Shown: positions 1 to 15,696 of the stretch, piece by piece
Layout: every line of letters begins with the position of its first letter
Numbering within the stretch: position 1 is the first letter of the stretch
NCBI GenBank assembly: GCA_016186325.1
Contig: JACPLW010000002.1
Span: 66,290-130,289 of the forward strand
DNA length: 64,000 nucleotides
Origin: Parcubacteria group bacterium
GTDB lineage: Bacteria > Patescibacteriota > Minisyncoccia > UBA10092
Reading direction: 5' to 3'
Notes under the pieces: generated by a model
What the model was told of the DNA's origin: nothing
What the model saw: the letters and a program-made list of their open reading frames with translations, nothing else
Database searches by the model: none
Position numbers and translations under genes: made by a program

Positions 1-13
1 ATCAAGCACAACG

Positions 14-748
14 ATGGTATTTTTTGAGAATATCAATAAAGCCGCTAAAAACGTAGAAAAATCACTGATGCCGAATAACATACCGTCCCAAAACAACGCA
101 ACTATAACTTCGGACGGAATTATCCTTTCGCTCACAAAGGAACAATTTGATTTTCTATACCCCGATTATTTTATTGCCGACTTAATTGATGCCCAAAATT
201 CCTTTGTTAAAGAGCAGGACTCCAGTTACGAACCCATACTAAAAATTGAAACTGATTCCCAAGTTAGATTTATTGAAGAGAAAATCGTGGCCACTTTACT
301 TATAGCCGACATGATAACCAGAGAAAGAGCGGAGCAATTGGTAACTACTATCCGCTTCACTCTCCCCCGGCTTCAAATTACAGGTTTACAAAATCAATAC
401 TCTTATGAATCAATGCCATTTTCAAAATTTTTTGAAACTGCTTTAGAGAGAAAAACGGAACTTCCGGAGACAGCGCCAAAGAGACAACTTTGGACCGGTT
501 TTATAGGGCAAATGGCAAATTCGTTTACTAACAAAGCCCAAGCCGCTTGCGGCGAGTGTGAATCTCGACCGGAATGCTACCAAGATTATCCTGATACTCC
601 GGGAAAAGAAGGATCCTCACTGATTTATCCTTCTTGTTACTGCACCGGCTGTCTTACTTCACTTGGATGCCTTTCCGCAAATGAAGGAGATGCGGCGATT
701 TATGACCAACAAACCGGAATTTGCGGCATCGGTCAGGGACAGCAGTGA
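14..748 (+). CDS. hypothetical protein with Cys-rich C-terminus (first ORF of the T4SS-like block; upstream context cut by window edge)
   Basis: 244-aa ORF with window-typical AT-rich codon usage; C-terminal cluster CGECESRPEC...CYCTGC...CGIG; no family recognised. Confidence 0.45.
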   Translation: MVFFENINKAAKNVEKSLMPNNIPSQNNATITSDGIILSLTKEQFDFLYPDYFIADLIDAQNSFVKEQDSSYEPILKIETDSQVRFIEEKIVATLLIADMITRERAEQLVTTIRFTLPRLQITGLQNQYSYESMPFSKFFETALERKTELPETAPKRQLWTGFIGQMANSFTNKAQAACGECESRPECYQDYPDTPGKEGSSLIYPSCYCTGCLTSLGCLSANEGDAAIYDQQTGICGIGQGQQ

Positions 749-790
749 AGACGGGTTTAAAAACATTTACACACTACCTTTAAACAAACA

Positions 791-1597
791 ATGATTAAAA
801 AACATTTTATAACTATATTTATAGTATCGGCTGGAATTATTTTCGGAGCACTTTTATTTGTTCCGGCTTCAAAAACTTTTTACGTAAAAAACAGCGCACC
901 GCGCCTTCAGGTAGCCAGTATCCATCAAAAGCTGTATCAAGCCGAAGATAGGGTCGGCGATATTTCCAACAATATTATTCCGGAAATAAAAATCCCGGAG
1001 AATTTAACCGAAAATTTCGCCGGGCTTTTAGCCAAATCAATTATTGATAAAAATAATAAGCCGAAAGATGCCAATTCGCCGGCCGAGCCGGGGCTTGATG
1101 TGCCGGACCCGAGTAAAATTGCCGAGGAATTTATAAAAAACGGTTTGGCGAAAGCTAATGAAAATATTTTGAACATTAAACCGCCGGAAATTAAAACATC
1201 GCCGGTAAACAGCAAAGAAGCAATTGAAATTTACCTAGCAGAGACCCAAAAAATATTAAAAGACGCCTTAAAAGGCGAACCGCTTTTATCAATTTTAGAA
1301 GAAATAAACAAAAACAATGGCCAAGGCCTTGAAAAACTTTTGCCCGTAATAAGCGCCCATGAAGCGGCGGCTAATCAAATTGAAGAAAATCCGGCGCCGA
1401 GCAATATAAAAGATTTAATTACGGAGGAAGTTCGCATGTTAAGAATTACGGCCAACATTTTAAGAGCGCTTACCAATGTTGAAACCGACCCCATAGCGAC
1501 TATTGTTGCCGCAAAACAGTTTGGCGCGGTAATTGACAGTTGGGAAGAGCTTCAGAAAAAATTCAATGTTTTTGTTGATAAACTAAATAAAACCTAA
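791..1597 (+). CDS. bitopic membrane protein (N-terminal TM anchor, Lys/Glu-rich extracytoplasmic domain); VirB8-like topology but no sequence-level assignment
   Basis: N-terminal hydrophobic segment IFIVSAGIIFGALLFV immediately after the start; co-directional with and tightly spaced to the VirB6/VirB4 genes. Confidence 0.45.
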   Translation: MIKKHFITIFIVSAGIIFGALLFVPASKTFYVKNSAPRLQVASIHQKLYQAEDRVGDISNNIIPEIKIPENLTENFAGLLAKSIIDKNNKPKDANSPAEPGLDVPDPSKIAEEFIKNGLAKANENILNIKPPEIKTSPVNSKEAIEIYLAETQKILKDALKGEPLLSILEEINKNNGQGLEKLLPVISAHEAAANQIEENPAPSNIKDLITEEVRMLRITANILRALTNVETDPIATIVAAKQFGAVIDSWEELQKKFNVFVDKLNKT

Positions 1598-1605
1598 TCC
1601 CCATA

Positions 1606-3072
1606 ATGAAATTTTTTAATAAAAAAATAGTCGTTTCAGTTTTTTTGTTTTTAATCGTGTTTTCAACCGCGCCAAACGCTGCTTTTGCCGCCGTGCCGAC
1701 TTTTGAAACAAATCCGAAGTTGCTATCCGATGAGTCAATTACGTCTATATTCCAAACAGCCACAAACCTTGAACAGATTTTCGAATGGGCGTTTAAAATA
1801 GCGGCCGAGGCCTTAAAGCGACAACTGCTTAATATGATTGTTGACCAGATAGTCACTTGGATCCAAGGGGGAGGAGAACCAAAATTTATCACCGATTGGC
1901 CGGGGTTCTTTCGGGACGCCGTTGACCAGGCGGGTGGAAGATTCTTACAGCAATTGGGGCTTGGATTGTTTTGTTCGCCATTCAACCTGACATTACGCGC
2001 TGCATTTATACCAATACCGCAATTTTCCGACCGCAGCGCCTGCACCTTAAGCCAGGTAGGAGTTAATCTTGATAACTTTTTAAAAGATTTCAGCAAAGGC
2101 GGCTGGGTGGCTTGGAACGAAATGGTGTTAAAACCCCAAAATAACATCTATGGAGCCTATCTCATGGCTTGGGATCAATATACCGTAGAAAGATCGGCGG
2201 CCCAAAAAGCGGCAGAATCGGAAGCCCAGGCCGGCCAGGGTTTTCTTAGCGTAAAAAAATGCATAAGACAGCACGAAGAAATAATAGGAGAAGAAAATGG
2301 ACAACCGATTACTACCACTGTTTGTGACCAGTATCAGGTGATTACTCCGGGAGCGGTTGTTGGCGACATTGCCGCAAAAGCCGTTGGTTCAGACATTGAC
2401 TATATAGTAAACGCTCAAGATTTTGCCGCTTATGTTTCGGCCATCACTAATGCGATATTAAATAGAATGTTTGCTGAAGGAGTGGGCCTTTTGCATGCCA
2501 GCTTATCCGGAAGAAGCGGTACCACTGGCGGCACTGCCCAACAACAGTGCGCTTCATTTCTTGGCACGCCGGCCTACGCCGAATGTCTAAGCGCGGTTCA
2601 AGCCGGAATAAATGTACGGGAATTTCAGAAAAATTATCTTATAAGATACATTGACCTTGACCTCGTATACCAAAATCAGCTTTTGGGCGCCAAACAGGCG
2701 ACACTGACAATTTTAAACCAATCGCTCAGCATTTTGCGCCAGCTTGAAACCTGCCAAGGATTTCCCAGCCCCGACACAGCCAGAGTTCAGAGCGACATTA
2801 GCACTGTCACCGGCCAAATAGCGGATATTCAATCCGACATTATCGCTCTTCAACTTTTGCAGCAACAGATTAGAAATCTTACCGATTTAAGCAGAATTGC
2901 TTCAATCTACGCCGAAGTGGTTGGAATGTTTAGTCCTGGAGTTACCCAGAGTTTAGCTTTAGCGGCTCAACAGGAAACCAATCAGAAACAGATAATTTTA
3001 AGGAATTATCAGAATCTATTGAATGCCTGCTTGGAGTCAAGAATAATACCGCCGCCGCCACCCGGCGAGTAA
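1606..3072 (+). CDS. secreted hypothetical protein (signal peptide), T4SS-associated
   Basis: N-terminal signal peptide VFLFLIVFSTAPNAAFA; 488 aa, helical, ends PPPPPGE; 9-nt gap to previous gene and 10-nt gap to next. Confidence 0.5.
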   Translation: MKFFNKKIVVSVFLFLIVFSTAPNAAFAAVPTFETNPKLLSDESITSIFQTATNLEQIFEWAFKIAAEALKRQLLNMIVDQIVTWIQGGGEPKFITDWPGFFRDAVDQAGGRFLQQLGLGLFCSPFNLTLRAAFIPIPQFSDRSACTLSQVGVNLDNFLKDFSKGGWVAWNEMVLKPQNNIYGAYLMAWDQYTVERSAAQKAAESEAQAGQGFLSVKKCIRQHEEIIGEENGQPITTTVCDQYQVITPGAVVGDIAAKAVGSDIDYIVNAQDFAAYVSAITNAILNRMFAEGVGLLHASLSGRSGTTGGTAQQQCASFLGTPAYAECLSAVQAGINVREFQKNYLIRYIDLDLVYQNQLLGAKQATLTILNQSLSILRQLETCQGFPSPDTARVQSDISTVTGQIADIQSDIIALQLLQQQIRNLTDLSRIASIYAEVVGMFSPGVTQSLALAAQQETNQKQIILRNYQNLLNACLESRIIPPPPPGE

Positions 3073-3082
3073 TTCGTAGTTT

Positions 3083-5065
3083 ATGAAAAAATTTCTAACA
3101 AAAAACAAAAAAATTGTCTGTTTGATGATTGCCAGCATTGTTATCTTTTCTTTACCATTTCCCGCCTCGGCCGTTTGGTACAATCCGACCTCTTGGTTAG
3201 GCAGCCTTGTCACTCTTAGCGCGGATGCTTTACTTTTTGTTTCAAGCGTTATCAGCGCCATGATAGGAATAGTTTTTGGCGTCATAATTTATCTCGAAGC
3301 CCAAATAATAGATTATCTGCTTAATCCAACAAATTTTCCCATGACTAACGCGCCAATTGTGACTCTCGGGTGGGGTATTACTCGCGACTTGGCCAACATG
3401 TTTTTCATTCTCATTCTCCTTATTATCGCGTTCGCGACGGTTTTAAGAATCCAATCCTACGCTTTAAAACAACTTTTGTGGAAAGTGGTCGTGGCCGCGC
3501 TCCTCATTAACTTCAGCTTGGTCATCGCCGGTTTTGTCATTGATTTTACTAATGTTATCACTACATTTTTCTTACGCCAAATTATAGGCAATAACGGAGT
3601 ATTTACATTTACCGGCAAATTAATGTCTGCAATGCAAATTCTTAATTTTTACAACCCCTCTCCACCAGAAGGAATAATTAGCGGAGCGACTCAATTCGGT
3701 GCTGCCGCTATAGCCGCTTTCGCGGGCATTGTTTTAACTTTAATCGCACTCATTGTAACTACATTTGTTTTCGGCGCGGCAATGATATTTTTAATAGTTA
3801 GAATCATTAACATTTGGATTTTATTGATTTTCGCGCCCATTGTCTGGACGCTTTGGATTCTGCCGGCTACAAGCGGCCAATTTTCAAAATGGTGGCATTC
3901 TTTTTTGCAGTGGGCTTTTTTCGCGCCGATTTTCGTTTTTATGATGTATCTTTCACTTTCCATTTTTGACGCCACTGGCAAATTAAAAGAGCATATCGGC
4001 CCGGTAGCGCTCCCGGCTAACTGGAATAAAGCGGAGGCCGGTCTTACAACAGCCGCGATGCCAGCGGCAATTTTCCAGTTTGCCTTAGCAATTGGTTTAA
4101 TGTTCGGTTCTTTAATCGTAGCCCAAAAATTCGGCACTTACGGCGCCGCCGCCAGCCAGAAGATGCTTGAAGGGTGGGGTAATAGCGCTAAAGGATTAGC
4201 CGCAAGGGAACTTAGAAAGAGAGGGGCGGGCTGGACCCAGCCGCTACCCGAAGGCGCTCCACCACCAACTGGTGTAAGAGGCATCATAAGAAGAGCTGGC
4301 GCAGGACTAGGCAGAGCCGCGGTGGCTGTGCCCGGTGCTAGAGGAGCATACTTGAATTTGCAGGCAAAAAATAAAAAAGATTATGAAGACGCACAAAATA
4401 AATACAAAGACGTTGATCCGGCAGTATTACAACAAATGTCGCAATCAACATTAATAGATTCAAGGGGAAAACTTGCGATTAAGCATTTACTTATGAGCAA
4501 AGGAAAGTTAAAACCGCAAGCGCCGGAACTTATGAAAATGCTTGACCAATCAAGACAATACGGCAAAGAAGGAGAAATGTTAAAATTGGTTTCTGAAAAA
4601 ATGAATAAAGATTTAACCGCCGCTAATGGCTATGGTAATGCTGAAAGAACAGAACTGCTGCAAAGAGCAAAAAAGTATGGTAATGAAAAAGATTATCTTA
4701 AATTCTTCCCGAACCTTGCTCCAGCAATAGGTAAGACAATTCAAGAAGCCGTTAAGGGAATAGAAAAAGCATCAGATATCTACGTTGATCAGATGACCGC
4801 CGATGTTGTAAGAGAATTAAGCATGCCTCAGCTCAAAGATATAGGCAAGAGCGGTTCCGATGCACAGAGAAGAGCTACAAAAATAGCCGTCATTCAAGAT
4901 TACAGAGGCCTTAGTCTAAGCGATAGGCAAAGCATCAGAATCGTATCTTTTGAAAAGAATCTTCAAAAACGAGAAGAGCTTAGAAAAACCTTACCGGAAA
5001 ACTTAAGAAAAATGTCCTACCAGCGAGAAATTACTACAACGCCCGCATGGGAACAAAACATTTAA
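3083..5065 (+). CDS. VirB6/TrbL-like polytopic inner-membrane channel protein with long hydrophilic C-terminal tail
   Basis: 660 aa; at least 6-7 long hydrophobic helices in the first ~350 aa, Gly/Arg-rich linker, Lys-rich soluble tail; sits in a VirB3-VirB4 neighbourhood as in Gram-positive/monoderm T4SS. Confidence 0.55.
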   Translation: MKKFLTKNKKIVCLMIASIVIFSLPFPASAVWYNPTSWLGSLVTLSADALLFVSSVISAMIGIVFGVIIYLEAQIIDYLLNPTNFPMTNAPIVTLGWGITRDLANMFFILILLIIAFATVLRIQSYALKQLLWKVVVAALLINFSLVIAGFVIDFTNVITTFFLRQIIGNNGVFTFTGKLMSAMQILNFYNPSPPEGIISGATQFGAAAIAAFAGIVLTLIALIVTTFVFGAAMIFLIVRIINIWILLIFAPIVWTLWILPATSGQFSKWWHSFLQWAFFAPIFVFMMYLSLSIFDATGKLKEHIGPVALPANWNKAEAGLTTAAMPAAIFQFALAIGLMFGSLIVAQKFGTYGAAASQKMLEGWGNSAKGLAARELRKRGAGWTQPLPEGAPPPTGVRGIIRRAGAGLGRAAVAVPGARGAYLNLQAKNKKDYEDAQNKYKDVDPAVLQQMSQSTLIDSRGKLAIKHLLMSKGKLKPQAPELMKMLDQSRQYGKEGEMLKLVSEKMNKDLTAANGYGNAERTELLQRAKKYGNEKDYLKFFPNLAPAIGKTIQEAVKGIEKASDIYVDQMTADVVRELSMPQLKDIGKSGSDAQRRATKIAVIQDYRGLSLSDRQSIRIVSFEKNLQKREELRKTLPENLRKMSYQREITTTPAWEQNI

Positions 5066-5074
5066 TTTCAATAT

Positions 5075-6031
5075 ATGCCAGAATTAACTCGAGAAGAAAA
5101 AATAAAATTATTTGAAAAGTTGCCGAAAGAACTTCAGGATTTGATGGAATCCGAAAATACCGGCGCGTTTTTATTGTATTTGGGAGAAAAATATAATTTA
5201 GATGAAGATAAAATTTCTTTACTTTCTAAAATCGTTGGCAACGTTATTTTAAAAATTACGCCGATAACAAGTTTAGCCCAAGAAATTGTAAATAAAGTAA
5301 TTCCCGACTCTCAAATAGCAATGGCGATTTCCCAAGAATTAAACAGCGGGCTTCTAACGCCTGTCTTAATGCAAGCCCCAACAGCGCCGCCAGCTATAAC
5401 GGCAACACCAAGACCTGTTTTACCAACTGCCCCCGCACTCCAACCCATTCCATCTCCTGCTGTCCCTTCAGCAAAAATTGTTTCGCCCGCCGTGCCGAAA
5501 ATTGACCAATATCGCGAACCAACAACAGCGGGGCCGGAAATTATTGACTTGAGAAAAGCCCCGCCATCGCCACTCCACAGCTTTCCTCGACCTTCCGAAG
5601 CCTTGCGCGAAGGAGGTAGCGAAGGAGAGCTACCGCCCGGGTTGCCTGTAGCCGCCGCGCCAATTCTACTTGAAGCAGATCCTCATTTACCCGAAAAAAT
5701 TTCACCTGCGCCGCCTGTCCAAATACCAAGTACCAAATACCAAATACCGTTAACCGACACTTACCGTGAATCCATTCCACCGGCAACCGCGCCTGCCGCT
5801 CCGTTGATGCCGGCAACAAATGCAGAGCCCAAAGAACCGCCTGTGGCAGGTAAAGTCGAACCACCTGTGGTGAGTAAAGTCGAACCACCACCTCAATATA
5901 TCATTAGGCCGCCCGGCTTACCGCCAATCCCGACGCCTCAGGTCGGGACTCCGACTTCGCCACAGGCGAACGTCGGAGCCGATAGTTATCGTGATGTTTT
6001 AGATTTAAGAAAAGACAAGGGAGAATTTTAA
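5075..6031 (+). CDS. proline-rich low-complexity protein (T4SS-associated, possible cell-wall spanning or adhesin-like)
   Basis: 318 aa; structured N-terminal ~90 aa then P/A/T-rich tract with a tandem 27-nt duplication (GKVEPPVV/SKVEPPP); contains a GC-rich palindromic insert at 5591-5616. Confidence 0.45.
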   Translation: MPELTREEKIKLFEKLPKELQDLMESENTGAFLLYLGEKYNLDEDKISLLSKIVGNVILKITPITSLAQEIVNKVIPDSQIAMAISQELNSGLLTPVLMQAPTAPPAITATPRPVLPTAPALQPIPSPAVPSAKIVSPAVPKIDQYREPTTAGPEIIDLRKAPPSPLHSFPRPSEALREGGSEGELPPGLPVAAAPILLEADPHLPEKISPAPPVQIPSTKYQIPLTDTYRESIPPATAPAAPLMPATNAEPKEPPVAGKVEPPVVSKVEPPPQYIIRPPGLPPIPTPQVGTPTSPQANVGADSYRDVLDLRKDKGEF

Positions 6032-6044
6032 ATCTTAGAAATTT

Positions 6045-6473
6045 ATGACTCAATACCAGGTCCCACAATTTGTAGATATAGAAGACAGGATCATCGGGCC
6101 GCTTACGCTTAAGCAATTTTTATATCTTGCTTTTGGCGGCGCCATTCTTTTTGTTACTTGGTTTATTTTCAAATTTTTCATCTGGATAATCATTGCCATT
6201 CCCGTGATCGCTGCCGCTTTGGCTTTTGCTTTTATAAAAATAAACGACCGGCCGTTTGTTTATTTTGCAATCGCCGCAGTATCGTATTTTATGAAACCAA
6301 GACTATATATTTTCAAGACTGCATCAAAAAAACCGGAACCTGTAATTTTGCCCGAAAAAACACCGGAATCCTCCTCCGCCCCGCAAAGCGGGGCTTCGGC
6401 GGACGAGAAAGTAACCAGATCAAAATTAAAAGAACTGGCGCTTAGTTTGGATACGGGCGCGCAGCGCCTTTAA
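6045..6473 (+). CDS. PrgI/VirB3-like small membrane protein
   Basis: 142 aa; N-terminus VPQFVDIEDRIIGPLTLKQFLYLAFGGAILF then a two-TM hairpin, resembling the PrgI family; directly upstream of the VirB4 ORFs. Confidence 0.6.
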   Translation: MTQYQVPQFVDIEDRIIGPLTLKQFLYLAFGGAILFVTWFIFKFFIWIIIAIPVIAAALAFAFIKINDRPFVYFAIAAVSYFMKPRLYIFKTASKKPEPVILPEKTPESSSAPQSGASADEKVTRSKLKELALSLDTGAQRL

Positions 6474-6478
6474 CAATC

Positions 6479-7144
6479 ATGCCGGAAACGCAAAAAACAA
6501 TTAAAGGGCCCGCAACACAGGAGTTTTTAGCCGTGGATGAAATCCGAGAAGATGTCGTTATTTTAAAAAACGGCGGGCTTCGGGCGGTTTTGATGACCGG
6601 TTCAAGAAACCTGGAGCTTGAATCAATCGATACTCAAAATGCCATCATCAAAAACTACGCCGATTTTCTAAATTCTTTTGACTGGCCGATTCAAATAATA
6701 ATCCATTCAAGAAAACTGGATATTAATCCCTATTTAAAATTACTTGAAGAAAAGTTAAAAACTCAAGAAAACGAGCTTCTAAAAATTCAGACAGCCGAAT
6801 ACATCGATTTTATAAGAAGTTTTGTTTCTCTTTCCGATGTGATGATTAAGAGGTTTTACATTTCCGTGGCCTTTGACCCAATTGAGTCAAAAACTGAAGG
6901 ACCGCTTGAAAAACTTGCCTCCATGATCGGCAAAGCGTCAAAAAAAGCCGCGCTTTCAGAAGAGATGTTCAAAGAATACAGAAGTCAAATGCTTCAACGG
7001 GTTGAACACACGGTCTTGACATTAGCCCACATCGGCATTAAGGCATCGCAGTTAAAGACAGACGAACTCATTGAACTGTTTTACAATCTTTATAATCCGG
7101 AAGATTTAGAGAAGAAAGACATTCAACTAACCGACAACTTGTAA
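6479..7144 (+). CDS. virB4: VirB4/TraC-family ATPase, N-terminal domain (separate ORF)
   Basis: Start motif TQEFLAVDEIREDVVILKNGGLRAVLMTGSRNLEL matches the VirB4/CagE N-terminal region; ends at TAA at 7145; next ORF in a different frame continues the family. Confidence 0.6.
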   Translation: MPETQKTIKGPATQEFLAVDEIREDVVILKNGGLRAVLMTGSRNLELESIDTQNAIIKNYADFLNSFDWPIQIIIHSRKLDINPYLKLLEEKLKTQENELLKIQTAEYIDFIRSFVSLSDVMIKRFYISVAFDPIESKTEGPLEKLASMIGKASKKAALSEEMFKEYRSQMLQRVEHTVLTLAHIGIKASQLKTDELIELFYNLYNPEDLEKKDIQLTDNL

Positions 7145-7161
7145 CAAAATAAGCAACCAAA

Positions 7162-9015
7162 ATGGCATTGTCTTTTTTCGGAAAAAAATCCGCCCAAAAC
7201 GAGACCTCGCCCCTTCGGGGCGGGGAAGGAATTCAGGGCGTTGTTACGCCGGAACAGGCCTATCAAAAAGGGCTGGCGTCTTTGCACGATATCTTGGCAC
7301 CATCGGCTCTAGAGGTTAATACTAATTACTTGCGCCTTGGTAAAAAGTTCGTTCAGAACTTTTTCATATTCAACTACCCTCGTTTTCTCAACACTAATTG
7401 GTTTGCTTCGGTTATTAACTTGGACAAAACAATGGACATAAGTTTTTTTATACATCCGGTTGATACGGGAATTGCCCTAAAAAATCTAAGAAAAAAAGTG
7501 GCGCAAGTTGAATCGGAACTTTCAATACGCGATGATAAAGGGCTGGTACGCGACCCAATGCTTGAAACTGCTTACAACGATCTTGAAGATTTGAGAGATA
7601 AACTTCAGCAATCAAGAGAAAAACTTTTCAAGTTCGGGCTTTACATAACCGCTTATGCCGATTCGCTTGAAGAAATGGAAAAAGTTGAAAACGCGATTCG
7701 CTCAATTTTAGACGCCAAACTGGTTTACAGTAAGCCGGCTATTTATCAACAGCTTAAAGGCTTTAACTCCACCCTGCCTCTTTCAAATGATGAACTCCAA
7801 ATAAATACAACCATGAACTCGGGGTCGATATCCGCGACCTTTCCTTTTGTTTCTTCGGATTTAACTTCTGACAACGGCATACTTTACGGCCTAAACCGCC
7901 ACAATAATTCGCTTATTCTTTTCGACAGATTTTCCTTGGAAAACGCCAATACCGTTGTTTTCGGCAAATCGGGCGGCGGAAAATCTTATGCTTCAAAATT
8001 GGAAATTCTAAGGTCTTTAATGCTTGGAGCAGACATTATTGTTTTTGATCCCGAAAGTGAATACCAGTTTCTCGCGGAAACTATCGGCGGCGCTTTTTTT
8101 AAAATTTCATTAACTTCTCAAAATCATTTAAATCCTTTTGACCTGCCAAAACCGCAAGAAGGTGAAAATCCGGCGGACATTTTAAGATCAAACATTATTA
8201 ATCTTGTCGGCCTTATAAGAATAATGCTGGGCGGCTTGAGCCCCGAAGAAGACGCCATAATCGATTCTGCTATAACCCAGACTTATGCCAGCCGCGACAT
8301 CACTCCCGCAACCACAGACTTTTCAAAAAATATCATGCCCACAATGACAGACCTTAAAACGATTTTGGACAGCATGACCGGCGCCGAATCACTTTCAAGA
8401 CGGCTGGAAAAATACGTTACCGGTTCTTACGCCGGCTTTATTAACAACCCGAGCAACATTGAAATAAAAAGTAAATTTGTGGTTTTCAGCATCCGCGACA
8501 TGGAAGAAGAACTGCGGCCGATAGCAATGTATATGATGCTTCACTTTATCTGGAATATTGTCCGCTCGGAACTTAAGAAGAGAATCCTTATGGTTGACGA
8601 GGCTTGGTGGCTTTTAAAATCAGAGGACGGCGCTTCTTTTATGTTTGGAATTGCCAAGCGCGCCAGAAAATACTTTTTGGGAGTGACCACCATTACCCAG
8701 GACGTATCCGATTTCTTAAGCAGTTCTTATGGAAAACCAATTTTAACCAATTCTTCTTTGCAGTTTCTTTTTAAGCAGTCGCCGGCAAACATTGACGTTC
8801 TCCAAAAAACTTTTAACTTGACCGATGAGGAAAAATTCTTATTGCTTGAGTCGGAGGTCGGCGAGGGCCTGTTTTTTGCCGGATCAAAACACGTGGCCAT
8901 TAAAGTAATCGCTTCCTATACCGAAGACCAGATTATCACTTCCGACCCGGCTCAGCTCCTGCAAATAGAGGCCGCAAAAAAAGAATTGGAGCGTGCCGAA
9001 ACAATAACACCGTAA
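7162..9015 (+). CDS. virB4: VirB4/TraC-family ATPase, C-terminal NTPase domain
   Basis: Walker A VVFGKSGGGKSYASK, Walker B/DEAW box RILMVDEAWWLL, length and order typical of VirB4 C-half; carries an in-frame GC palindromic insert at 7201-7230. Confidence 0.8.
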   Translation: MALSFFGKKSAQNETSPLRGGEGIQGVVTPEQAYQKGLASLHDILAPSALEVNTNYLRLGKKFVQNFFIFNYPRFLNTNWFASVINLDKTMDISFFIHPVDTGIALKNLRKKVAQVESELSIRDDKGLVRDPMLETAYNDLEDLRDKLQQSREKLFKFGLYITAYADSLEEMEKVENAIRSILDAKLVYSKPAIYQQLKGFNSTLPLSNDELQINTTMNSGSISATFPFVSSDLTSDNGILYGLNRHNNSLILFDRFSLENANTVVFGKSGGGKSYASKLEILRSLMLGADIIVFDPESEYQFLAETIGGAFFKISLTSQNHLNPFDLPKPQEGENPADILRSNIINLVGLIRIMLGGLSPEEDAIIDSAITQTYASRDITPATTDFSKNIMPTMTDLKTILDSMTGAESLSRRLEKYVTGSYAGFINNPSNIEIKSKFVVFSIRDMEEELRPIAMYMMLHFIWNIVRSELKKRILMVDEAWWLLKSEDGASFMFGIAKRARKYFLGVTTITQDVSDFLSSSYGKPILTNSSLQFLFKQSPANIDVLQKTFNLTDEEKFLLLESEVGEGLFFAGSKHVAIKVIASYTEDQIITSDPAQLLQIEAAKKELERAETITP

Positions 9016-9059
9016 ATTAGAGATTAGATATTAGGATTTAGAAATTATATAATGTATAT

Positions 9060-9521
9060 ATGGCACTAGCGGAAAAATTAGAAAAAAGAGAAGCTTCTTT
9101 AAAAGAAAAACTAACCAAAAAATCCCAGGAAGCCGAAAGAAGCAAAACAGTGAAAATTGATTCAATGGAATGGCTCATATTATTTATGGGCGCCGGCTAC
9201 ATTGATCTGCTTTTTGTAATTTTAACCGTTATAGGATTAATACCAGTAGTGGGACAGGTTATTTATGCCATTGCAGATCCGGCCATGAACATTATCGCTA
9301 CGGGCATATTTTGGTTTTACTTGCAGTATAAAGGACTCGGAGGTTATTGGTGGCTGGCCTTTGGAGGCGGCGTGGCGAATCTGATCCCTGTCGTTAATTG
9401 GATTGGCTGGATAATGGCGGTTTTAATTCTTTACTTCTTAATCAAGGCGGAAAAAATTCCTTTGGCCGGTGAAGCGATTGAAAAAGCCGCCAAAGCAGCG
9501 TCAAAAGTTCCGATTAAATAA
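9060..9521 (+). CDS. small polytopic membrane protein (3-4 TM), T4SS-associated
   Basis: 153 aa; charged N-terminus then hydrophobic stretches LILFMGAGYIDLLFVILTVIGLIPVV and WIGWIMAVLILYFLI. Confidence 0.45.
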   Translation: MALAEKLEKREASLKEKLTKKSQEAERSKTVKIDSMEWLILFMGAGYIDLLFVILTVIGLIPVVGQVIYAIADPAMNIIATGIFWFYLQYKGLGGYWWLAFGGGVANLIPVVNWIGWIMAVLILYFLIKAEKIPLAGEAIEKAAKAASKVPIK

Positions 9522-9524
9522 ATA

Positions 9525-10598
9525 ATGAAACACGCAACAAACAACATGCAACATAAAACATATAATTTAAAGCAATCGATTATGGCCGTATTTTTATTGT
9601 TTGTTTCATGTTTCATGTTTCGTGTTTCATGGGCATCGGCGCAATTTGAATTGCCAACAATAGGAAGCATTAAACCGGCTATTTCCTTGAGCTCCGACCC
9701 GTTAACACCTCTGCCTAATTCAACAATTACCATCGCCGCAAACCTTTCGGGAGTAACCGGCAGCGGAAGTTCAAACTACACATGGTTTTTAAATGGCGTG
9801 AGGCAAACCGAGCATTCCGGATTAAATAAGAGCAAATTTACTTTCAAAGCTAGCGCCATCGGCATTGTCTATAGAATAAATGTCAATGTTACAATGCCAG
9901 GCGGCGGAGTTCTTTCAGATGCTGCGGTTTTTACCGTCAGCGACGTTGACCTAAGCTGGAATGCATCCAGCGAAGCGCCGGCCGGCTATCGCGGTAAGAC
10001 TCTTCCAACCAAAAAGTCGGCAGTTTTGATATCGGCCCTGCCAACCATATACCAACCGGGAACGAAAGCCTTGATAAGTTCCGGCGGTTTAGTCTTTAAC
10101 TGGTTTATAAATGGTAAACTCCAAGCCGACAAGTCGGGAATCGGGCGATCTGACCTAAATTTTTATGTTGGCAGTTTCTCCGGAGGCAGCGAAGAAATCC
10201 GCTTAGAAGTAAAAACGGGAGATAGCACCGTTTCTCTAAACAAATTCGTTACCGTCCCAATAATGCGGCCTCAAACTTTTATATATGTTGCCGATAATAA
10301 AACGTCCTTGCCTTACGGCAAAGCGTTGAGAGATTTTTTTATAGAGTCAGCCACAGTTAAAGCAATCGACTTCGTGGCAGAAAATTATTTTTTCAACTTT
10401 CCTAAAAACCGGTTAAAATGGAGTTGGCTGGTTGACAGTAGAGAAATAATGGGAGGAGGGGATAAGCCGTGGTCTGCTGTTTTAAATGTTCCGGAGAACA
10501 TCGCCCGACCATTTTCTTTTCAAGTCAGGGCAGTTGCCCAAAATCCGCAGGAAGACTTGGAAATAGCCGAATCAACGGCAAACTTGAAAGTAAGATAG
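9525..10598 (+). CDS. secreted protein with three internal sequence repeats
   Basis: Signal peptide ending WASAQ; three repeats of the type NYTWFLNGVRQ / FNWFINGKLQ / LKWSWLVDSRE; its leader is paralogous to the leader of the next gene. Confidence 0.5.
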   Translation: MKHATNNMQHKTYNLKQSIMAVFLLFVSCFMFRVSWASAQFELPTIGSIKPAISLSSDPLTPLPNSTITIAANLSGVTGSGSSNYTWFLNGVRQTEHSGLNKSKFTFKASAIGIVYRINVNVTMPGGGVLSDAAVFTVSDVDLSWNASSEAPAGYRGKTLPTKKSAVLISALPTIYQPGTKALISSGGLVFNWFINGKLQADKSGIGRSDLNFYVGSFSGGSEEIRLEVKTGDSTVSLNKFVTVPIMRPQTFIYVADNKTSLPYGKALRDFFIESATVKAIDFVAENYFFNFPKNRLKWSWLVDSREIMGGGDKPWSAVLNVPENIARPFSFQVRAVAQNPQEDLEIAESTANLKVR

Positions 10599-10630
10599 GA
10601 TGACGAATCATAAAACGCATAACCTGAAAC

Positions 10631-11059
10631 ATGAACAACAAAACCCACAACCTAAAGTTACCTGCCACGGCTGTATTTTTATTATTTGTTTTATTTTTTG
10701 CGCTTTACACTTCACCGGTTTTGGCCCAATACCGGCTTGAGACCGGGCTTCCCGGCGTACCCGGCGGGAAGTTACCGGCAGGAACCGAACTCCCTTCTTA
10801 TCTTAGATACCTTTTTATCTTTGGGTTGGGGTTTATTACTGTTTTGGCTCTTAGCGTAATGATGTTTGGTGGCATCCAATACATTCTGGCGGCTGGAAAC
10901 GCGGCTAAAACGGAAGAAGCTAAAGCTTGGATTCAACAAGCGCTCTTCGGCCTTGGCCTGCTTTTGGTTTCTTATCTCCTTCTAAGAACCATTAATCCAG
11001 ATTTGGTTAATTTGAGAAACCCTAATCTCGCCCCAACCCAACTTCAAAGTTCACCATAA
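10631..11059 (+). CDS. VirB2/TrbC-like pilin candidate (signal peptide plus two hydrophobic helices)
   Basis: 142 aa; leader VFLLFVLFFALYTSPVLAQ then hydrophobic helix, short loop, second hydrophobic helix, as in T-pilin/TrbC subunits. Confidence 0.45.
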   Translation: MNNKTHNLKLPATAVFLLFVLFFALYTSPVLAQYRLETGLPGVPGGKLPAGTELPSYLRYLFIFGLGFITVLALSVMMFGGIQYILAAGNAAKTEEAKAWIQQALFGLGLLLVSYLLLRTINPDLVNLRNPNLAPTQLQSSP

Positions 11060-11061
11060 AT

Positions 11062-12159
11062 ATGTCCAAAAAAACTCTCTATATAATTTTAATAGTCATT
11101 GGCAGCCTCATTTTAATTGGAGGTTTAATTTGGTACTTTCTATTAAGGCAAACGGAAACATTGCCGCCGGGAACGGACTTTACGGTAAACGGCCAGCCCG
11201 TCACCGGCGAAAGCAAGCTCAAAGCCATAAGCAACGGCCCGGCTGTTGCCGCTAAGTTGAGTGGTGAAATGCTTTTGTTTTATGATTTTTCCGGCCAGCT
11301 GTGGCAGTTGCCAATCGGAACAACTGCGCCGGTCGCCGCCCCGCAGGCGACCATTGGCAATCCGGCAGATGTTGTCTGGTCGCCAGACCTTAAAAACATA
11401 GTTAAATCAGGAATTTGGCAAGCCGATATTAAATACGTTTTTTCCGACTTCACCAAAAAGACCTTGATTAATTTAAAAAGCGGGATTAAATCGCTCTCGT
11501 TTTCGCCCGACGGAGGAAAAATAACTTATTATGTTTTTGAAAACCTTAAAAGCAACAGTTTATTTACTAGCGACCCTGATGGTAAAAATCAAAGAGCGCT
11601 ACTGGTCTCTCTAAAGTTGCGAGACATAGTTTTAGCATGGCCTAAAATCAACCAAATAAGCCTGACCTCAAAACCAAGTGGTTTGATTCCAGGCGGAGTC
11701 TGGACCATTGACACTAGAAATCTCGTGTTTGCCAAAATTATTGGAGATTTTAACGGTTTGGAAATATTGTGGGCGCCAGACGGAAATAGTTTCGTTTATT
11801 CTTTTACCGACCAAAACGGGCGAAATCCCCAGTTGGCGGTACACAGCAAAAAAGGCGAGGAAAAAAACCTAAGCGGCATTTCAACTGTAATTGACAAATG
11901 CGCTTGGGCAAGTGATTCGATAAATGTGTTTTGCGCAGTACCGGAAAACTGGCCGGAAGGAATGGTTTTGCCTGACGATTACTATAAGAGAGTTGATTTA
12001 ACAGTTGATAACATTTGGAAAATTAACACCGAAACCGAAGAAAAAAGGTTGCTGGCTTCGGGTCTGGGAGACATTAAAAACCTCATAATCGATAAGAATG
12101 AAGACAATATGTTCTTCATTCTAAGAAACGACCAGGTTTTATATGAATTAAACTTTTAG
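11062..12159 (+). CDS. membrane-anchored TolB-like (PD40) beta-propeller protein
   Basis: N-terminal TM LYIILIVIGSLILIGGLIWYFLL; repeated SPDG/APDG blades (WSPDLKN, SFSPDGGKITYY, WAPDGNSFVYSF). Confidence 0.55.
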   Translation: MSKKTLYIILIVIGSLILIGGLIWYFLLRQTETLPPGTDFTVNGQPVTGESKLKAISNGPAVAAKLSGEMLLFYDFSGQLWQLPIGTTAPVAAPQATIGNPADVVWSPDLKNIVKSGIWQADIKYVFSDFTKKTLINLKSGIKSLSFSPDGGKITYYVFENLKSNSLFTSDPDGKNQRALLVSLKLRDIVLAWPKINQISLTSKPSGLIPGGVWTIDTRNLVFAKIIGDFNGLEILWAPDGNSFVYSFTDQNGRNPQLAVHSKKGEEKNLSGISTVIDKCAWASDSINVFCAVPENWPEGMVLPDDYYKRVDLTVDNIWKINTETEEKRLLASGLGDIKNLIIDKNEDNMFFILRNDQVLYELNF

Positions 12160-12617
12160 TTAATGTATTTAATCACAACCCGCCTTTCTTCACCTTCTCC
12201 GGCACTCTCCGTTTTTATATCCGGATGTGCAGAGAGTTCGATGTGAATGATTCTTCTGTCATAAGCCGTCATTGGCTCTAAAACCACTTCACGCTTGTAA
12301 AACCTGGCTTTATGAGCAGCTTTTTTAGCCAGCTCTTTAAGCGATCCGTCTCTTAAACTCCGGTAATTATTTACATCAAGGTGAAAGAACGGCGCTCCGT
12401 TTAACTTCTTTTTCAATATAAGCCGTAAAACCGTTTCAAACACACTAATGTTGCGTCCCCGCTCGCCTATATACGAACTTGGATCATCGGTCAAAAAGCA
12501 AATGTTAAGCGATTCTTCACTTCCGGTTTCAATGATTTTTATCTCAAAATTTGAAGCCCCCGTTTTTGCGAAAAACTCATTTGTTACATCTTTAATTTTT
12601 TCCAAGTTTTCGGTCAT
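12156..12617 (-). CDS. jag: Jag/KhpB RNA-binding protein (KH plus R3H domains)
   Basis: R3H signature YDRRIIH near the C-terminus; conserved position downstream of yidC in the rpmH-rnpA-yidC-jag cluster. Confidence 0.8.
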   Translation of the reverse strand: MTENLEKIKDVTNEFFAKTGASNFEIKIIETGSEESLNICFLTDDPSSYIGERGRNISVFETVLRLILKKKLNGAPFFHLDVNNYRSLRDGSLKELAKKAAHKARFYKREVVLEPMTAYDRRIIHIELSAHPDIKTESAGEGEERRVVIKYIN

Positions 12618-13305
12618 TTTTTTGAATGGTATATTGCTGAAGTAAAGTCATAAGGGTAACAACAACCCAATAAAGAGGCAGAGCAGAGGGCAGATTCCAG
12701 AAAATTATTACGCTCAAAATAGGCCCAAAATAAAGCATCTGTTGAGACATCATTCTGCTGAAATCCGCGGTTCCAGCAGACTTGGCGAAGGACGGCATGA
12801 TCATTTTTGTCTGAAAGTACTGCAATGCTCCAGCTATGATTGCTAATAACACGTTTCGCTTTGTTAAATCAAATATTCCGAGAAAGATCGGGCGGATTTC
12901 TTCGGGCGCTCTAATGAAAGAGTACAGTAAGTCTTGGTCTATTCCCGTGCCGTTTAAAAACACTCTCCATAAGGCAATTATGATGGGAATTTGTATTAAT
13001 AGCGGCAAAAAACCGCTAAGAGGATTAATTTTGTTTTCCGAATAAAGAGCCATCAGCGCTCTAGCTTTTGCCTCTTTGTCGTTTTTGAACTTTTTATTGA
13101 CTTCCTCTATCTTGGGTTTCAGTTTTTCTAAAGCTTTTTGGCTCCTGATGCCCTTACCGGTAAGAGGCCAGAGCGCCAACCGAATTAAAACCGTTAAAGC
13201 AACAATAGAAAGACCAAAATCATGATTGGGAATGATATTGTATAAAAAAACTAAAGCATTAAATAACGGCTGATAGAATGTTAAGTTAAAAAGATAGGAT
13301 ATCAT
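12592..13305 (-). CDS. yidC: YidC/Oxa1-family membrane protein insertase (short form)
   Basis: 237 aa polytopic protein with conserved YidC core helices (LIRLALWPLT, GFLPLLIQIPIIIALW); synteny with rnpA. Confidence 0.85.
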   Translation of the reverse strand: MISYLFNLTFYQPLFNALVFLYNIIPNHDFGLSIVALTVLIRLALWPLTGKGIRSQKALEKLKPKIEEVNKKFKNDKEAKARALMALYSENKINPLSGFLPLLIQIPIIIALWRVFLNGTGIDQDLLYSFIRAPEEIRPIFLGIFDLTKRNVLLAIIAGALQYFQTKMIMPSFAKSAGTADFSRMMSQQMLYFGPILSVIIFWNLPSALPLYWVVVTLMTLLQQYTIQKNDRKLGKN

Positions 13306-13630
13306 TTTTTGTGAGTAATTCTCTTAAATTATCTTTAATGCTCCTGTAATCTTTGTTTTTAGCGGGCTCTCTCGGCCATATGATAATATCATATCCTGGT
13401 TTTACCTTTTTAAACAAAAAAAGCGCTGCCGCTCTTAGCTGCCTTTTAATTTGGTTCCTTTTTGACGCTTTTTTATAAAACTTGGTGCTGACAATAAAAC
13501 CGAACCTGCTGAAATTTTTGTAATTTTTCACGAATTTCATCTTTACAAGGCCATTCTCACAAGTTTTTCCTTTAGTAAAAGCGTTTTTGAAGTCGCCGGT
13601 TGCCGTTAGGCGGTTAATTCTAGGAAGCAT
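13286..13630 (-). CDS. rnpA: ribonuclease P protein component
   Basis: 114 aa basic protein starting MLPRINRLTATGDFK; overlaps yidC start; directly downstream of rpmH. Confidence 0.8.
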   Translation of the reverse strand: MLPRINRLTATGDFKNAFTKGKTCENGLVKMKFVKNYKNFSRFGFIVSTKFYKKASKRNQIKRQLRAAALFLFKKVKPGYDIIIWPREPAKNKDYRSIKDNLRELLTKNDILSF

Positions 13631-13658
13631 ATGCTTGCATTTGCAAATGATAATAAAG

Positions 13659-13793
13659 TTAAACAGTTAGCTTATAACGGCCTTTTCGCCTTCTCCTCGA
13701 AATGACCGCGCCTCCGCCTTTACTACCCGCCCTTTTTAAAAATCCGTGCTTGCGTTGTCTTTTTATTTTTTTTGGATTATAGGTTTTACTCAT
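13659..13793 (-). CDS. rpmH: 50S ribosomal protein L34
   Basis: Hand translation of the minus strand gives MSKTYNPKKIKRQRKHGFLKRAGSKGGGAVISRRRRKGRYKLTV; not in the supplied ORF track because it is under 60 aa. Confidence 0.85.
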   Translation of the reverse strand: MSKTYNPKKIKRQRKHGFLKRAGSKGGGAVISRRRRKGRYKLTV

Positions 13794-13889
13794 CCCGTTA
13801 GAAATTTAATTCTAAATAATAATTTTCACTATATCTTAAAACTATAAACAATATATCCTGTTAAATAACTAGTATAGATTTCTAACAGG
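13794..13889. repeat. long-range inverted-repeat pair CCCGTTAGAAAT ... 72 bp AT-rich spacer ... ATTTCTAACAGG (copy a); left arm abuts the rpmH start codon
   Basis: Left arm 13794-13805 lies immediately 5' of the rpmH ATG on the minus strand; right arm 13878-13889 has one substitution that is a G-U wobble only on the minus-strand transcript. Confidence 0.7.
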
Positions 13890-14060
13890 ACTCATACTTT
13901 TATATTTTTATAACACGAAAATTGATATTGCGTCAAACATTTAAATTAATTTATACTTTTCAACAGAGTACTCACAGGTTATTAACTTTTTTACGAATGA
14001 AAGTTTTCTTAAAACCCTTTTACTTAATGATATACTGGAAATGTAGAATTTATAATCAAC

Positions 14061-15440
14061 ATGGATTTCAATGAATTGTGGAAAGCGGTTCTAGGAGATA
14101 TAGAACTGCAAATTTCAAAAGCAAATTTTAAAACTTGGCTACAAAATACCGCTATTGTAGATAAAAAAGACGGTGTTGTTACTATTGCCGTACCTAATGG
14201 CTTTACTAAAGAATGGTTGGAAAACAAGTACAATAAGTCTATCCTAAGGTCTTTGAGAAACATTCAGTCGGACATTAAAGAAGTAACTTATCAAATCAGC
14301 CAAAAACAAACAAAAAACATTGACAATAATCAGAAGCTCTCTAAAGAGGAGGGTGCAATTTCAAAAAAACAGCTCGATTTTGTCGAACTTAACGCGGATA
14401 CAGAGACAAATTTAAATCCCCGATATGCCTTTGAAAATTTCATTGTAGGCCCATCGAATGAGCTGGCTCATGCCGCCGCTATTGCTGTAACTAAAAATTT
14501 AGGGAAAAAATACAATCCACTCTTTATTTACGGAGGAGTGGGCCTGGGTAAAACCCATTTAATTCAATCAATAGGCCAAGCCGTTAAAAAAGAGCACCCA
14601 AATAAGAAGGTGAAATATGTCACTTCCGAAAGGTTCACTTCAGAAGTGGTTTCTACTTTAAGATCCGGAGCATTAAGATCAAACGATATTGATAACTTTA
14701 AAAAAAGATGGCGCGAAATCGATTTGTTAATAATTGATGACATCCAGTTTTTAGCCGGTAAAGAAAGAACTCAAGAAGAATTCTTCCATATTTTTAACGC
14801 TCTCTACGATGTCGGAAAGCAAATAGTACTTTCGTCAGACCGGCCGCCAAAATCAATCCAAAACATGGAAGAGAGGTTGAGATCTCGCTTTGAAGGAGGC
14901 ATGCTTGCCGACATATCATATCCCGACCTCGAAACCAGAATCGCTATTCTAAAAACCAAGGCTCATGAGAAAGGATTTCAAGCTTCGGACGAAGCTTATG
15001 AATTTATAGCTTCTAACATAAAAAAGAATGTAAGAGAACTTGAAGGAGCTTTAAACCGGCTAATAATAAATCGCCGCGACGACCAAAAGGAATTAACAAT
15101 AGTGGAAGTAAAGAAAAGTTTAAATTCAATTATAAATACCCCTAAAAAAATCACTACATTAAAAAACATTATTAAGGCCGTCGCGGAATTTTACGATATT
15201 AGTGAAAAAGACCTTTTAGAACGCTCCAGAAAAAAAGAAATAGTCAAACCTAGACAAATAATAATGTACCTTTTAAGAGAAGAATTAAAAAGTTCTTTCC
15301 CTTTTATCGGGATGAAAATTGGAGGACGGGATCATACTACTGCCATTCATGCGTGTGAAAAAATAAAAAAAGAACTCGATTCTAATCCGACTTTATGTGA
15401 TGAAATTAATGTAATAAGAGAAAAACTTTACCTTGTTTAA
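14061..15440 (+). CDS. dnaA: chromosomal replication initiator DnaA
   Basis: AAA+ Walker A GGVGLGKTHL, box VII and sensor motifs, C-terminal DNA-binding domain; dnaA-dnaN synteny. Confidence 0.95.
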   Translation: MDFNELWKAVLGDIELQISKANFKTWLQNTAIVDKKDGVVTIAVPNGFTKEWLENKYNKSILRSLRNIQSDIKEVTYQISQKQTKNIDNNQKLSKEEGAISKKQLDFVELNADTETNLNPRYAFENFIVGPSNELAHAAAIAVTKNLGKKYNPLFIYGGVGLGKTHLIQSIGQAVKKEHPNKKVKYVTSERFTSEVVSTLRSGALRSNDIDNFKKRWREIDLLIIDDIQFLAGKERTQEEFFHIFNALYDVGKQIVLSSDRPPKSIQNMEERLRSRFEGGMLADISYPDLETRIAILKTKAHEKGFQASDEAYEFIASNIKKNVRELEGALNRLIINRRDDQKELTIVEVKKSLNSIINTPKKITTLKNIIKAVAEFYDISEKDLLERSRKKEIVKPRQIIMYLLREELKSSFPFIGMKIGGRDHTTAIHACEKIKKELDSNPTLCDEINVIREKLYLV

Positions 15441-15696
15441 AATTTTGTGGAAAAACTGGTTACAAACCAATAAATAACTGTGGGTTAATAAGTGATTAAA
15501 AAGTTTATAAATTTAATTTTTAATTTAATACTAAAAACTAGAAACAGAGTATTACCAAGTTATTCACAAAATTATTAACATGATAATAAGAGAAAAAGGG
15601 CTTAAATAACAAATAAATAAAACTTATACACTTAAAAATCACTGTTTAATAATAATAAGTTATAAAAAATAAATAATAGTTAATGATAATATAAAA
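15441..15696. promoter_or_regulatory. putative oriC: AT-rich dnaA-dnaN spacer with DnaA-box-like 9-mers
   Basis: TGTGGAAAA (1 mismatch to TGTGGATAA), TTATTCACA (1 mismatch to TTATCCACA), TGTGGGTTA, TTATACACT, plus a long AT-only tract as a candidate unwinding element. Confidence 0.5.

Follow-up and report, generated by a model that had tools for sequence, protein, structure and literature searches.

The ATPase VirB4 of type IV secretion systems (T4SSs) is encoded in 2,417 of 3,035 Patescibacteria genomes, where it forms a monophyletic clade nested in the MPF_FATA class (Quinonero-Coronel et al., 2025; PMC12102498). According to the same study, TrsD, PrgI/VirB3, VirB6 and VirB2-like pilins (PF18895, PF04956) have their genes close to virB4, VirB8 is seldom detectable, relaxases are found in only 103 of the 3,035 genomes and the genes for type IV coupling proteins (T4CPs) mostly lie at a distance from virB4. 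In Paceibacteria and Microgenomatia the locus adjoins dnaA, dnaN, rnpA and rpmH, which the authors read as a gene-dosage effect, and in the class ABY1 the T4SS co-localizes with comF, recG and radA (PMC12102498). In Saccharibacteria, epibiotic growth requires a homologous cluster, SEML1_0006–0019, which is likewise located next to dnaA (Wang et al., 2023; PMC10633639), and a review from 2025 counts such systems among the monoderm T4SSs that bear a pilus and whose substrate is unknown (PMC12857230). Here we describe a gene block of this kind at the left end of a 64,000-nucleotide stretch of DNA from a Patescibacteria (Paceibacteria) genome, called the window below, and compare it with related contigs (labelled L followed by a number). 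It is nearly certain that the block (positions 791–12159) encodes a T4SS. It is probably a resident machine of the Patescibacteria clade, derived from MPF_FATA, which would mediate exchange upon contact with a host and not conjugation; this function is suggested by homology and by analogy with the Saccharibacteria system.

Twelve plus-strand open reading frames (ORFs), named o01 to o12 here, fill the left 12 kb of the window, with gaps of 2–44 nucleotides between them (Table 1). The initial annotation had read all twelve as one monoderm-type T4SS block. The eleven complete, co-directional genes o02 to o12 agree with this reading, whereas o01 is cut by the window edge and probably lies outside the core of the block.

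The VirB4 ATPase, o08, scores 385 bits against NF045971, the family of VirB4-like CD1110 conjugal transfer ATPases (cutoff 325 bits), over profile positions 179–734 of 752. It also matches P-loop_TraG (E = 8.5e-24) and carries a Walker A motif (GKSGGGKS) at residue 268 and a Walker B motif (ILMVDE) at residue 475. The next-best curated family is the VirB4 of Mycoplasma integrative and conjugative elements (ICEs), with 278 bits, and the proteobacterial VirB4 and TrbE models reach 22–27 bits. The plasmid-borne VirB4s closest to o08 are those of the CD1110 family from Firmicutes and Actinobacteria (identity of at most 36%), and the sequence is therefore consistent with a monoderm (MPF_FATA) ancestry. 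No profile match to VirB9 or VirB10 was found among the proteins of the block. Judged by the best curated families, the plasmid matches and the missing VirB9 and VirB10, the block can be placed in the MPF_FATA class.

The N-terminal domain that o08 lacks appears to be encoded separately, by the TrsD-like gene o07 that precedes it. On the full-length VirB4_plasma profile, o07 covers positions 104–284 (E = 2.3e-8, under the curated cutoff) and o08 positions 292–893, so that the two proteins tile the profile; o07 also matches the TrsD/TraD family NF041427 (E = 5.5e-6, 26 bits), far under its cutoff of 200. Because a stand-alone ORF of 205–230 residues occupies the TrsD position in 78 related loci, the split of VirB4, already noticed in the initial annotation, is ancestral and not a frameshift. 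Directly before the TrsD-like gene and two genes upstream of VirB4, a position that the PrgI gene has in every one of the 54 loci compared, o06 encodes a small membrane protein that scores 32.2 bits against PF12666 PrgI (gathering score 27).

Two further components are assigned through their orthologs. By hydropathy, o04 has about eight transmembrane (TM) segments in residues 1–340, followed by a hydrophilic C-terminal region of about 320 residues. Although the window copy has no match in Pfam or NCBIfam, nor in the PDB when searched as a single sequence, as a profile or as a TM-trimmed profile, PF04610 (TrbL/VirB6) is matched by 12 of its 44 positional orthologs (best E = 8.6e-8), and further-removed homologs reach 25.5–25.8 bits on TrbL (gathering score 25.9). 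A weak resemblance links o04 to the Mycoplasma ICE TM protein Mbov_0396 (E = 0.069). PF19590 tags that had been precomputed for close homologs could not be reproduced at E <= 0.01 and were left aside. By transitivity from its orthologs, o04 is most probably a VirB6 homolog, and the TrbL/VirB6-like protein of the initial annotation thus stands in topology and through its orthologs, not by a direct match of the window copy. The pilin candidate o11 has a signal peptide and two hydrophobic helices (by hydropathy). It scores 19.9 bits against T4SS_pilin (PF18895), under the gathering score of 26.6; its positional orthologs match PF18895 in 29 cases out of 35 (best E = 4.7e-10) and TrbC/VirB2 in five, and the aligned pilin core keeps G81, G107, I121 and N122. 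With the NF045971 score, the PrgI match above its gathering score and the TrbL and PF18895 matches of orthologs, both the monoderm-type T4SS and its VirB2/TrbC-like pilin are upheld.

Table 1. Genes of the T4SS block, its flank at the replication origin and other features discussed in the text. Counts give the related loci in which the gene or gene pair is found at its position.
Feature	Positions	Strand	Basis	Related loci
o01, 5'-incomplete ORF, Cys-rich C-terminus	14–748	plus	no family match	
o02, bitopic, one N-terminal TM segment (residues 6–24) and predicted extracellular four-helix bundle	791–1597	plus	AlphaFold model	36 of 54
o03, secreted protein, signal peptide ending AFA/AVP	1606–3072	plus	conserved position	36 of 54
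o04, extended VirB6/TrbL-like polytopic membrane protein	3083–5065	plus	ortholog profile matches, hydropathy, position	44 of 54
o05, no TM segment, probably cytoplasmic	5075–6031	plus	family alignment	43 of 54
o06, PrgI/VirB3-like small membrane protein	6045–6473	plus	PF12666 PrgI	54 of 54
o07, TrsD-like, VirB4 N-terminal domain as separate polypeptide	6479–7144	plus	VirB4_plasma, NF041427	54 of 54
o08, VirB4 ATPase, CD1110/MPF_FATA type, without own N-terminal domain	7162–9015	plus	NF045971	
o09, small polytopic membrane protein	9060–9521	plus	family alignment	53
o10, secreted, signal peptide ending ASA/QFE, tentative Ig-like beta-sandwich repeats	9525–10598	plus	weak profile matches	32 of 46
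o11, VirB2-type T4SS pilin, minimal 142-residue form	10631–11059	plus	PF18895 in orthologs	45 of 46
o12, membrane-anchored TolB-like beta-propeller	11062–12159	plus	family profile against PDB	43 of 46
jag (R3H/KH), yidC, rnpA, rpmH	12156–13793	minus	Pfam R3H, 60KD_IMP, Ribonuclease_P	
rpmH (L34), 44 residues	13659–13793	minus	ORF located	
dnaA	14061–15440	plus	Pfam Bac_DnaA	
yidC (minus) with dnaA (plus)				43 of 46
dnaN	15697–16824	plus		
PilB-like T2SSE ATPase	23640–25301	minus		
DprA	40245–41213	minus		
ComEC, first ORF (DUF4131 + Competence)	51660–53039			
ComEC, second ORF (metallo-beta-lactamase), one base after the first	53041–53916			
Pilin-position fusion ORF	L042:12932–14023			
Pilin-position fusion ORF	L061:4294–6075			
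Pilin-position fusion ORF	L063:12829–14190			
Pilin-position fusion ORF	L073:12779–13729			
Pilin-position fusion ORF	L047:12804–14045			

Relatives of the o08 VirB4 were sought in one genome per species, and 521 were found. The best 80 of these 521 all come from Patescibacteria/Paceibacteria metagenome-assembled genomes, with identities of 59–79%, the closest being that of a Candidatus Azambacteria (79%); by its sequences, the organism of the window is itself a member of the Paceibacteria. For gene order we used 46 species-level loci with at least 8 kb beyond VirB4 for the downstream counts and 54 loci with at least 8 kb for the upstream counts. The shared order is o02-o03-o04-o05-PrgI-TrsD-VirB4-o09-o10-pilin-propeller, followed by yidC on the minus strand and dnaA on the plus strand. 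Since the block keeps its place next to yidC and dnaA in 43 of the 46 loci while VirB4 is only 60–65% identical, the block would have been inherited vertically and not inserted. Moreover, neither the ORFs of about 290 residues or more in the window nor the 2.6 kb upstream of it in the same organism yielded a T4CP, a relaxase or an integrase; these 2.6 kb contain the remainder of o01, ksgA, a TrmB-like gene and a small ORF on the minus strand. The fixed chromosomal site and the missing mobility genes together identify the block, by sequence comparison, as a resident chromosomal locus and no ordinary ICE. The same had been proposed in the initial annotation from a block that abuts rpmH-rnpA-yidC-jag and dnaA and shows no VirD4, relaxase or oriT; both points withstood the Pfam and ORF searches, the check upstream of the window and the synteny comparison. 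By proxy of the VirB4 identities (59–79% for the best 80 relatives against at most 36% for plasmids), the pilin, the position at dnaA and the lack of a relaxase, the block can be assigned to the Patescibacteria-clade T4SS.

Around this core, six genes are conserved in position, and four of their products (o02, o03, o05 and o09) could be assigned to no family. In the initial annotation, o02 had been described as a bitopic protein with the topology of VirB8. An alignment of 49 of its homologs was built, and the AlphaFold model (pLDDT 82) is a membrane-anchored four-helix bundle and not an NTF2 fold; the VirB8 assignment was abandoned. Between TM anchor and bundle, most o02 orthologs have thrombospondin type-3 (TSP3) repeats, which bind Ca (PF18884, DxDxDGLxDWEE); these repeats are missing from the window copy and its closest relative. 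The next gene, o03, lies directly upstream of the VirB6-like gene wherever it is found, and its product combines a conserved Cys/Gly-rich N-terminal domain (invariant Gly and Cys positions) with a C-terminal helical bundle. Its AlphaFold model has a pLDDT of 69 and is confident only over residues 310–480. We found no Pfam, NCBIfam or PDB-profile family for o03, a scan of its orthologs and a Foldseek search against the PDB gave nothing significant, and its homologs are all annotated as 'hypothetical'. To ascribe a VirB5-like or VirB1-like role to it would be speculation.

The o05 family, which lies between the VirB6-like and PrgI genes and has no Pfam or NCBIfam match, shows a conserved N-terminal helical domain of about 95 residues, a Pro-rich linker and a C-terminal D-P-Y-R-E(-P) motif (DSYRD in the window copy), in which D303 is invariant and Y305, R306 and E307 are each kept in at least 90% of the aligned sequences. 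Further YRE repeats (DQYRE, DTYRE) lie inside the window copy. The C-terminal motif could be a docking or recognition peptide. Immediately after VirB4 comes o09, likewise without a Pfam or NCBIfam match, with a charged N-terminus, 2–4 hydrophobic segments and conserved D49 and P110. It is followed by o10, whose profile gives weak matches (E = 0.003–0.01) to Ig-like phage decoration and Hoc domains and whose orthologs weakly match BiPBP_C, Cadherin-like, PKD and Ig_3; we tentatively regard it as made of Ig-like repeats. Finally, the family profile of o12 (window copy and orthologs) matches the TolB propellers of the PDB (E = 3.6e-11), in line with the TolB-like propeller of the initial annotation, and there is a weak PD40 repeat match. 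This last gene before yidC encodes a TM segment at residues 5–23 and a conserved Cys pair (C280, C291). The TolB of a Tol-Pal system was considered and rejected for o12, which is TM-anchored and lies within a T4SS operon with no Tol-Pal genes nearby; the sequence comparison indicates a TolB-like protein in fold only.

In some other Paceibacteria the pilin position is taken by a single ORF of 300–590 residues, in which T4SS_pilin is joined to a C-terminal peptidoglycan-active domain. The five fusions in Table 1 end in NlpC/P60 (three), a YkuD L,D-transpeptidase (one) and a VanY carboxypeptidase (one); that of L047 was assigned to the pilin family through an iterative hidden Markov model and has no PF18895 match at E <= 0.001. 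No mention of pilin-enzyme fusions was found in the T4SS papers searched. If these fusions are what they seem, the pilus itself would bring a cell-wall-remodelling activity to the host surface. It is possible, although we propose it with considerable reserve, that the Paceibacteria share a fixed eleven-gene architecture in which o02, o03, o05, o09, o10 and o12 form a new envelope or host-contact module with no characterised T4SS counterpart, and that in many species the pilin is fused to NlpC/P60, YkuD or VanY.

How the machine may work can be outlined from these components. VirB4 hexamers, with their N-domain supplied by TrsD, would dock on a platform that PrgI/VirB3 and VirB6 form in the membrane. 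Driven by ATP, VirB4 would extract the Sec-inserted pilin from the membrane, and the extracted pilin would be polymerised into a pilus or a conduit across the thin cell envelope. The helical-bundle anchor of o02, o03, the Ig-like o10 and the o12 propeller may build the envelope-spanning or host-contact part. By analogy with the system of Saccharibacteria, which is essential for epibiotic growth, the machine would serve contact-dependent exchange with the host, most likely of proteins or other molecules and not conjugative DNA transfer. Such a system is thought to let ultra-small, auxotrophic Patescibacteria exploit host cells, and no T4SS before that of Saccharibacteria had been shown to be essential to its owner's growth.

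We may ask whether anything is translocated at all, or whether VirB4, VirB3 and VirB6 simply polymerise the pilin of an assembly and adhesion organelle. The pilin is indeed the most constant downstream partner in the loci compared, no coupling protein lies nearby to recruit substrates, and surface-type domains (Ig-like, propeller, TSP3 repeats) suit adhesion. An organelle for adhesion only is nevertheless unlikely: type IV pili are already present for this purpose (PMC10633639) and a PilB-like ATPase is encoded in the window, a VirB6-type channel protein with a large extension has been kept, and the Bordetella Ptl and Brucella VirB systems, which have no T4CP, still secrete proteins (PMC12102498). 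Somewhat less probable again is a machine for DNA uptake or export like the ComB system of H. pylori or the archaeal Ced system, which would feed nucleotides or DNA to an auxotroph. Nucleotide synthesis is missing in Patescibacteria, the ABY1 gene neighbourhood mentioned above would suit such a role, and o08 weakly matches the archaeal DNA-import ATPases CedB (E = 1.7e-11) and CedD (E = 7e-4). However, these matches are far under the cutoffs of the two families and reflect generic P-loop similarity, and the window encodes a separate competence set of ComEC, DprA and the PilB-like ATPase. In S. epibionticum, moreover, the loss of comEC abolishes transformation and leaves viability unaffected, whereas the T4SS is essential (PMC12857230); whatever the T4SS is essential for, it is therefore not ComEC-dependent DNA uptake. 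Least probable of all is that the block is the mating-pair-formation module of an ICE or decayed ICE that moves DNA through a remote coupling protein and relaxase: its VirB4 does belong to the conjugal-transfer family CD1110, with the nearest relatives outside the Patescibacteria on conjugative plasmids, T4CP homologs are carried by most Patescibacteria genomes at a distance from virB4 (PMC12102498) and our inspection covered 64 kb of the genome only, but the order and site of the genes are kept at 60–65% VirB4 identity, mobility genes are missing from the window and the 2.6 kb before it, the GC content of the block (0.41–0.46) is close to that of the remaining window and relaxases are as rare in Patescibacteria genomes as stated above.

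The resident, host-directed T4SS that we prefer has points against it as well. A T4CP or relaxase could sit elsewhere in the genome, beyond the window; T4CP homologs are common but distant from virB4 in these genomes (PMC12102498). No role is assigned to six of the eleven genes, a search of the block turned up neither a VirB8-like (NTF2) nor a VirB1-like protein, and the VirB6-like and pilin proteins of the window are sub-threshold in Pfam and owe their assignment to orthologs and topology. Furthermore, the proposed function is carried over from Saccharimonadia, which is another class, and in no member of the Paceibacteria has a pilus, a substrate or a host been observed.

On its right side the block meets the origin region, its 3' end overlapping the stop of the convergent jag gene by four bases. 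The dnaA-dnaN spacer (15441–15696) is AT-rich, with a GC content of 25.5% over positions 15001–16000, and the cumulative GC-skew minimum of the window falls near 14 kb; the replication origin is therefore likely to lie in this intergenic region. DnaA-box-like sites with one mismatch each occur at 15446, 15560 and 15735, a cluster local to the spacer; over the whole window the count of such sites is not above chance. A promoter and terminator scan of positions 1–14200 also gave counts at chance level, and no GGAGG-type Shine-Dalgarno sequence was recognisable in the 20 nucleotides before any of the 12 starts, which are A/T-rich instead. The block is transcribed toward the inferred origin (rpmH/dnaA/dnaN region, 13.8–15.7 kb) and so meets the leftward replication fork head-on; across 1–9 kb the GC skew is mainly negative. 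The orientation T4SS (plus), yidC (minus), dnaA (plus) is kept in 43 of the 46 related loci. The published gene-dosage idea (PMC12102498) leaves this head-on orientation unaddressed, the words 'head-on' and 'lagging' not occurring in its text.

At the left edge, the frame of o01 is open upstream to window position 2, and the whole gene encodes 337 residues in the same organism (L081:2376–3389). The C-terminal 60 or so residues are Cys-rich (CGECESRPECY...CYCTGC...C), relatives have an N-terminal TM segment, and no Pfam or NCBIfam family was found. The sole other homolog is that of the closest relative (L001:1467–2417), where ksgA separates it from o02; the position of o01 relative to ksgA differs between the genomes that have it. 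Elsewhere in the window, the other large ORFs are housekeeping genes, which encode TyrRS, RuvB, the PilB-like ATPase, PolA, Fpg, HolA, ParB, RelA/SpoT, TopA, DprA, HisRS, FtsA, FtsZ and ComEC, the two ORFs of the last representing either a real split or perhaps a frameshift. Two overlapping plus-strand ORFs (41461–43221, 586 residues; 43212–44798, 528 residues) have no Pfam match at E <= 1e-5.

Among the systems to which the block can be compared, Bordetella Ptl and Brucella VirB share with it the lack of a local coupling protein and, probably, a non-conjugative nature (PMC12102498), but they belong to the diderm MPF_T systems, possess VirB11 and a VirB7/9/10 core, and have known substrates. 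The MPF_FATA systems of plasmids and ICEs resemble it in composition: their CD1110 VirB4 and PrgI (pCF10) have homologs in the block, their TrsD (pGO1) has a TrsD-like counterpart there, and like the block they have no VirB7/9/10 outer-membrane core. However, these systems have no VirB2 pilins and come with a relaxase, a T4CP, VirB8-like proteins, surface adhesins and a hydrolase of the VirB1 type, whereas the block is chromosomal, is locally devoid of those components and has a pilin, its VirB4 being at most 36% identical to theirs.

The cluster SEML1_0006–0019 of Southlakia epibionticum ML1 has the same order VirB6-PrgI-TrsD-like-VirB4 on the same side of dnaA. Downstream of these genes it encodes PF18895 pilins and an Ig-like protein that is exported, and neither a relaxase nor a coupling protein can be recognised within it. 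The two loci differ in gene content, however. Where the window has one VirB6-like protein and one minimal pilin, the S. epibionticum cluster has two large VirB6-like proteins and an array of six pilins; it also encodes an NTF2-like protein of the VirB8 type and a lysozyme/peptidase protein, neither of which is present in the block, whereas the TolB-like propeller is a feature of the window. Only the S. epibionticum cluster has been demonstrated to be essential.

With the Patescibacteria-clade T4SS of PMC12102498 the block shares the MPF_FATA VirB4, a separate TrsD-like protein, PrgI/VirB3, a VirB6-like protein and a PF18895-type pilin, the lack of a relaxase and a chromosomal site beside dnaA, dnaN, rnpA and rpmH; nothing essential differs. 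The machine, its missing DNA-transfer genes and its adjacency to dnaA are thus already known from papers of 2023–2025 (PMC12102498, PMC10633639), and the novelty entertained in the initial annotation gives way to the same conclusions in PMC12102498, PMC10633639 and PMC12857230. What the present comparison adds to PMC12102498, whose text does not mention TolB or a propeller and does not name o02, o03, o05, o09, o10 or o12, is the synteny of these six genes across the Paceibacteria. The remaining novelty is small, and the block represents no new kind of system; relative to the known ones, the leads are the six conserved, Paceibacteria-specific accessory genes and, at other loci, the fusions of the pilin to peptidoglycan enzymes.

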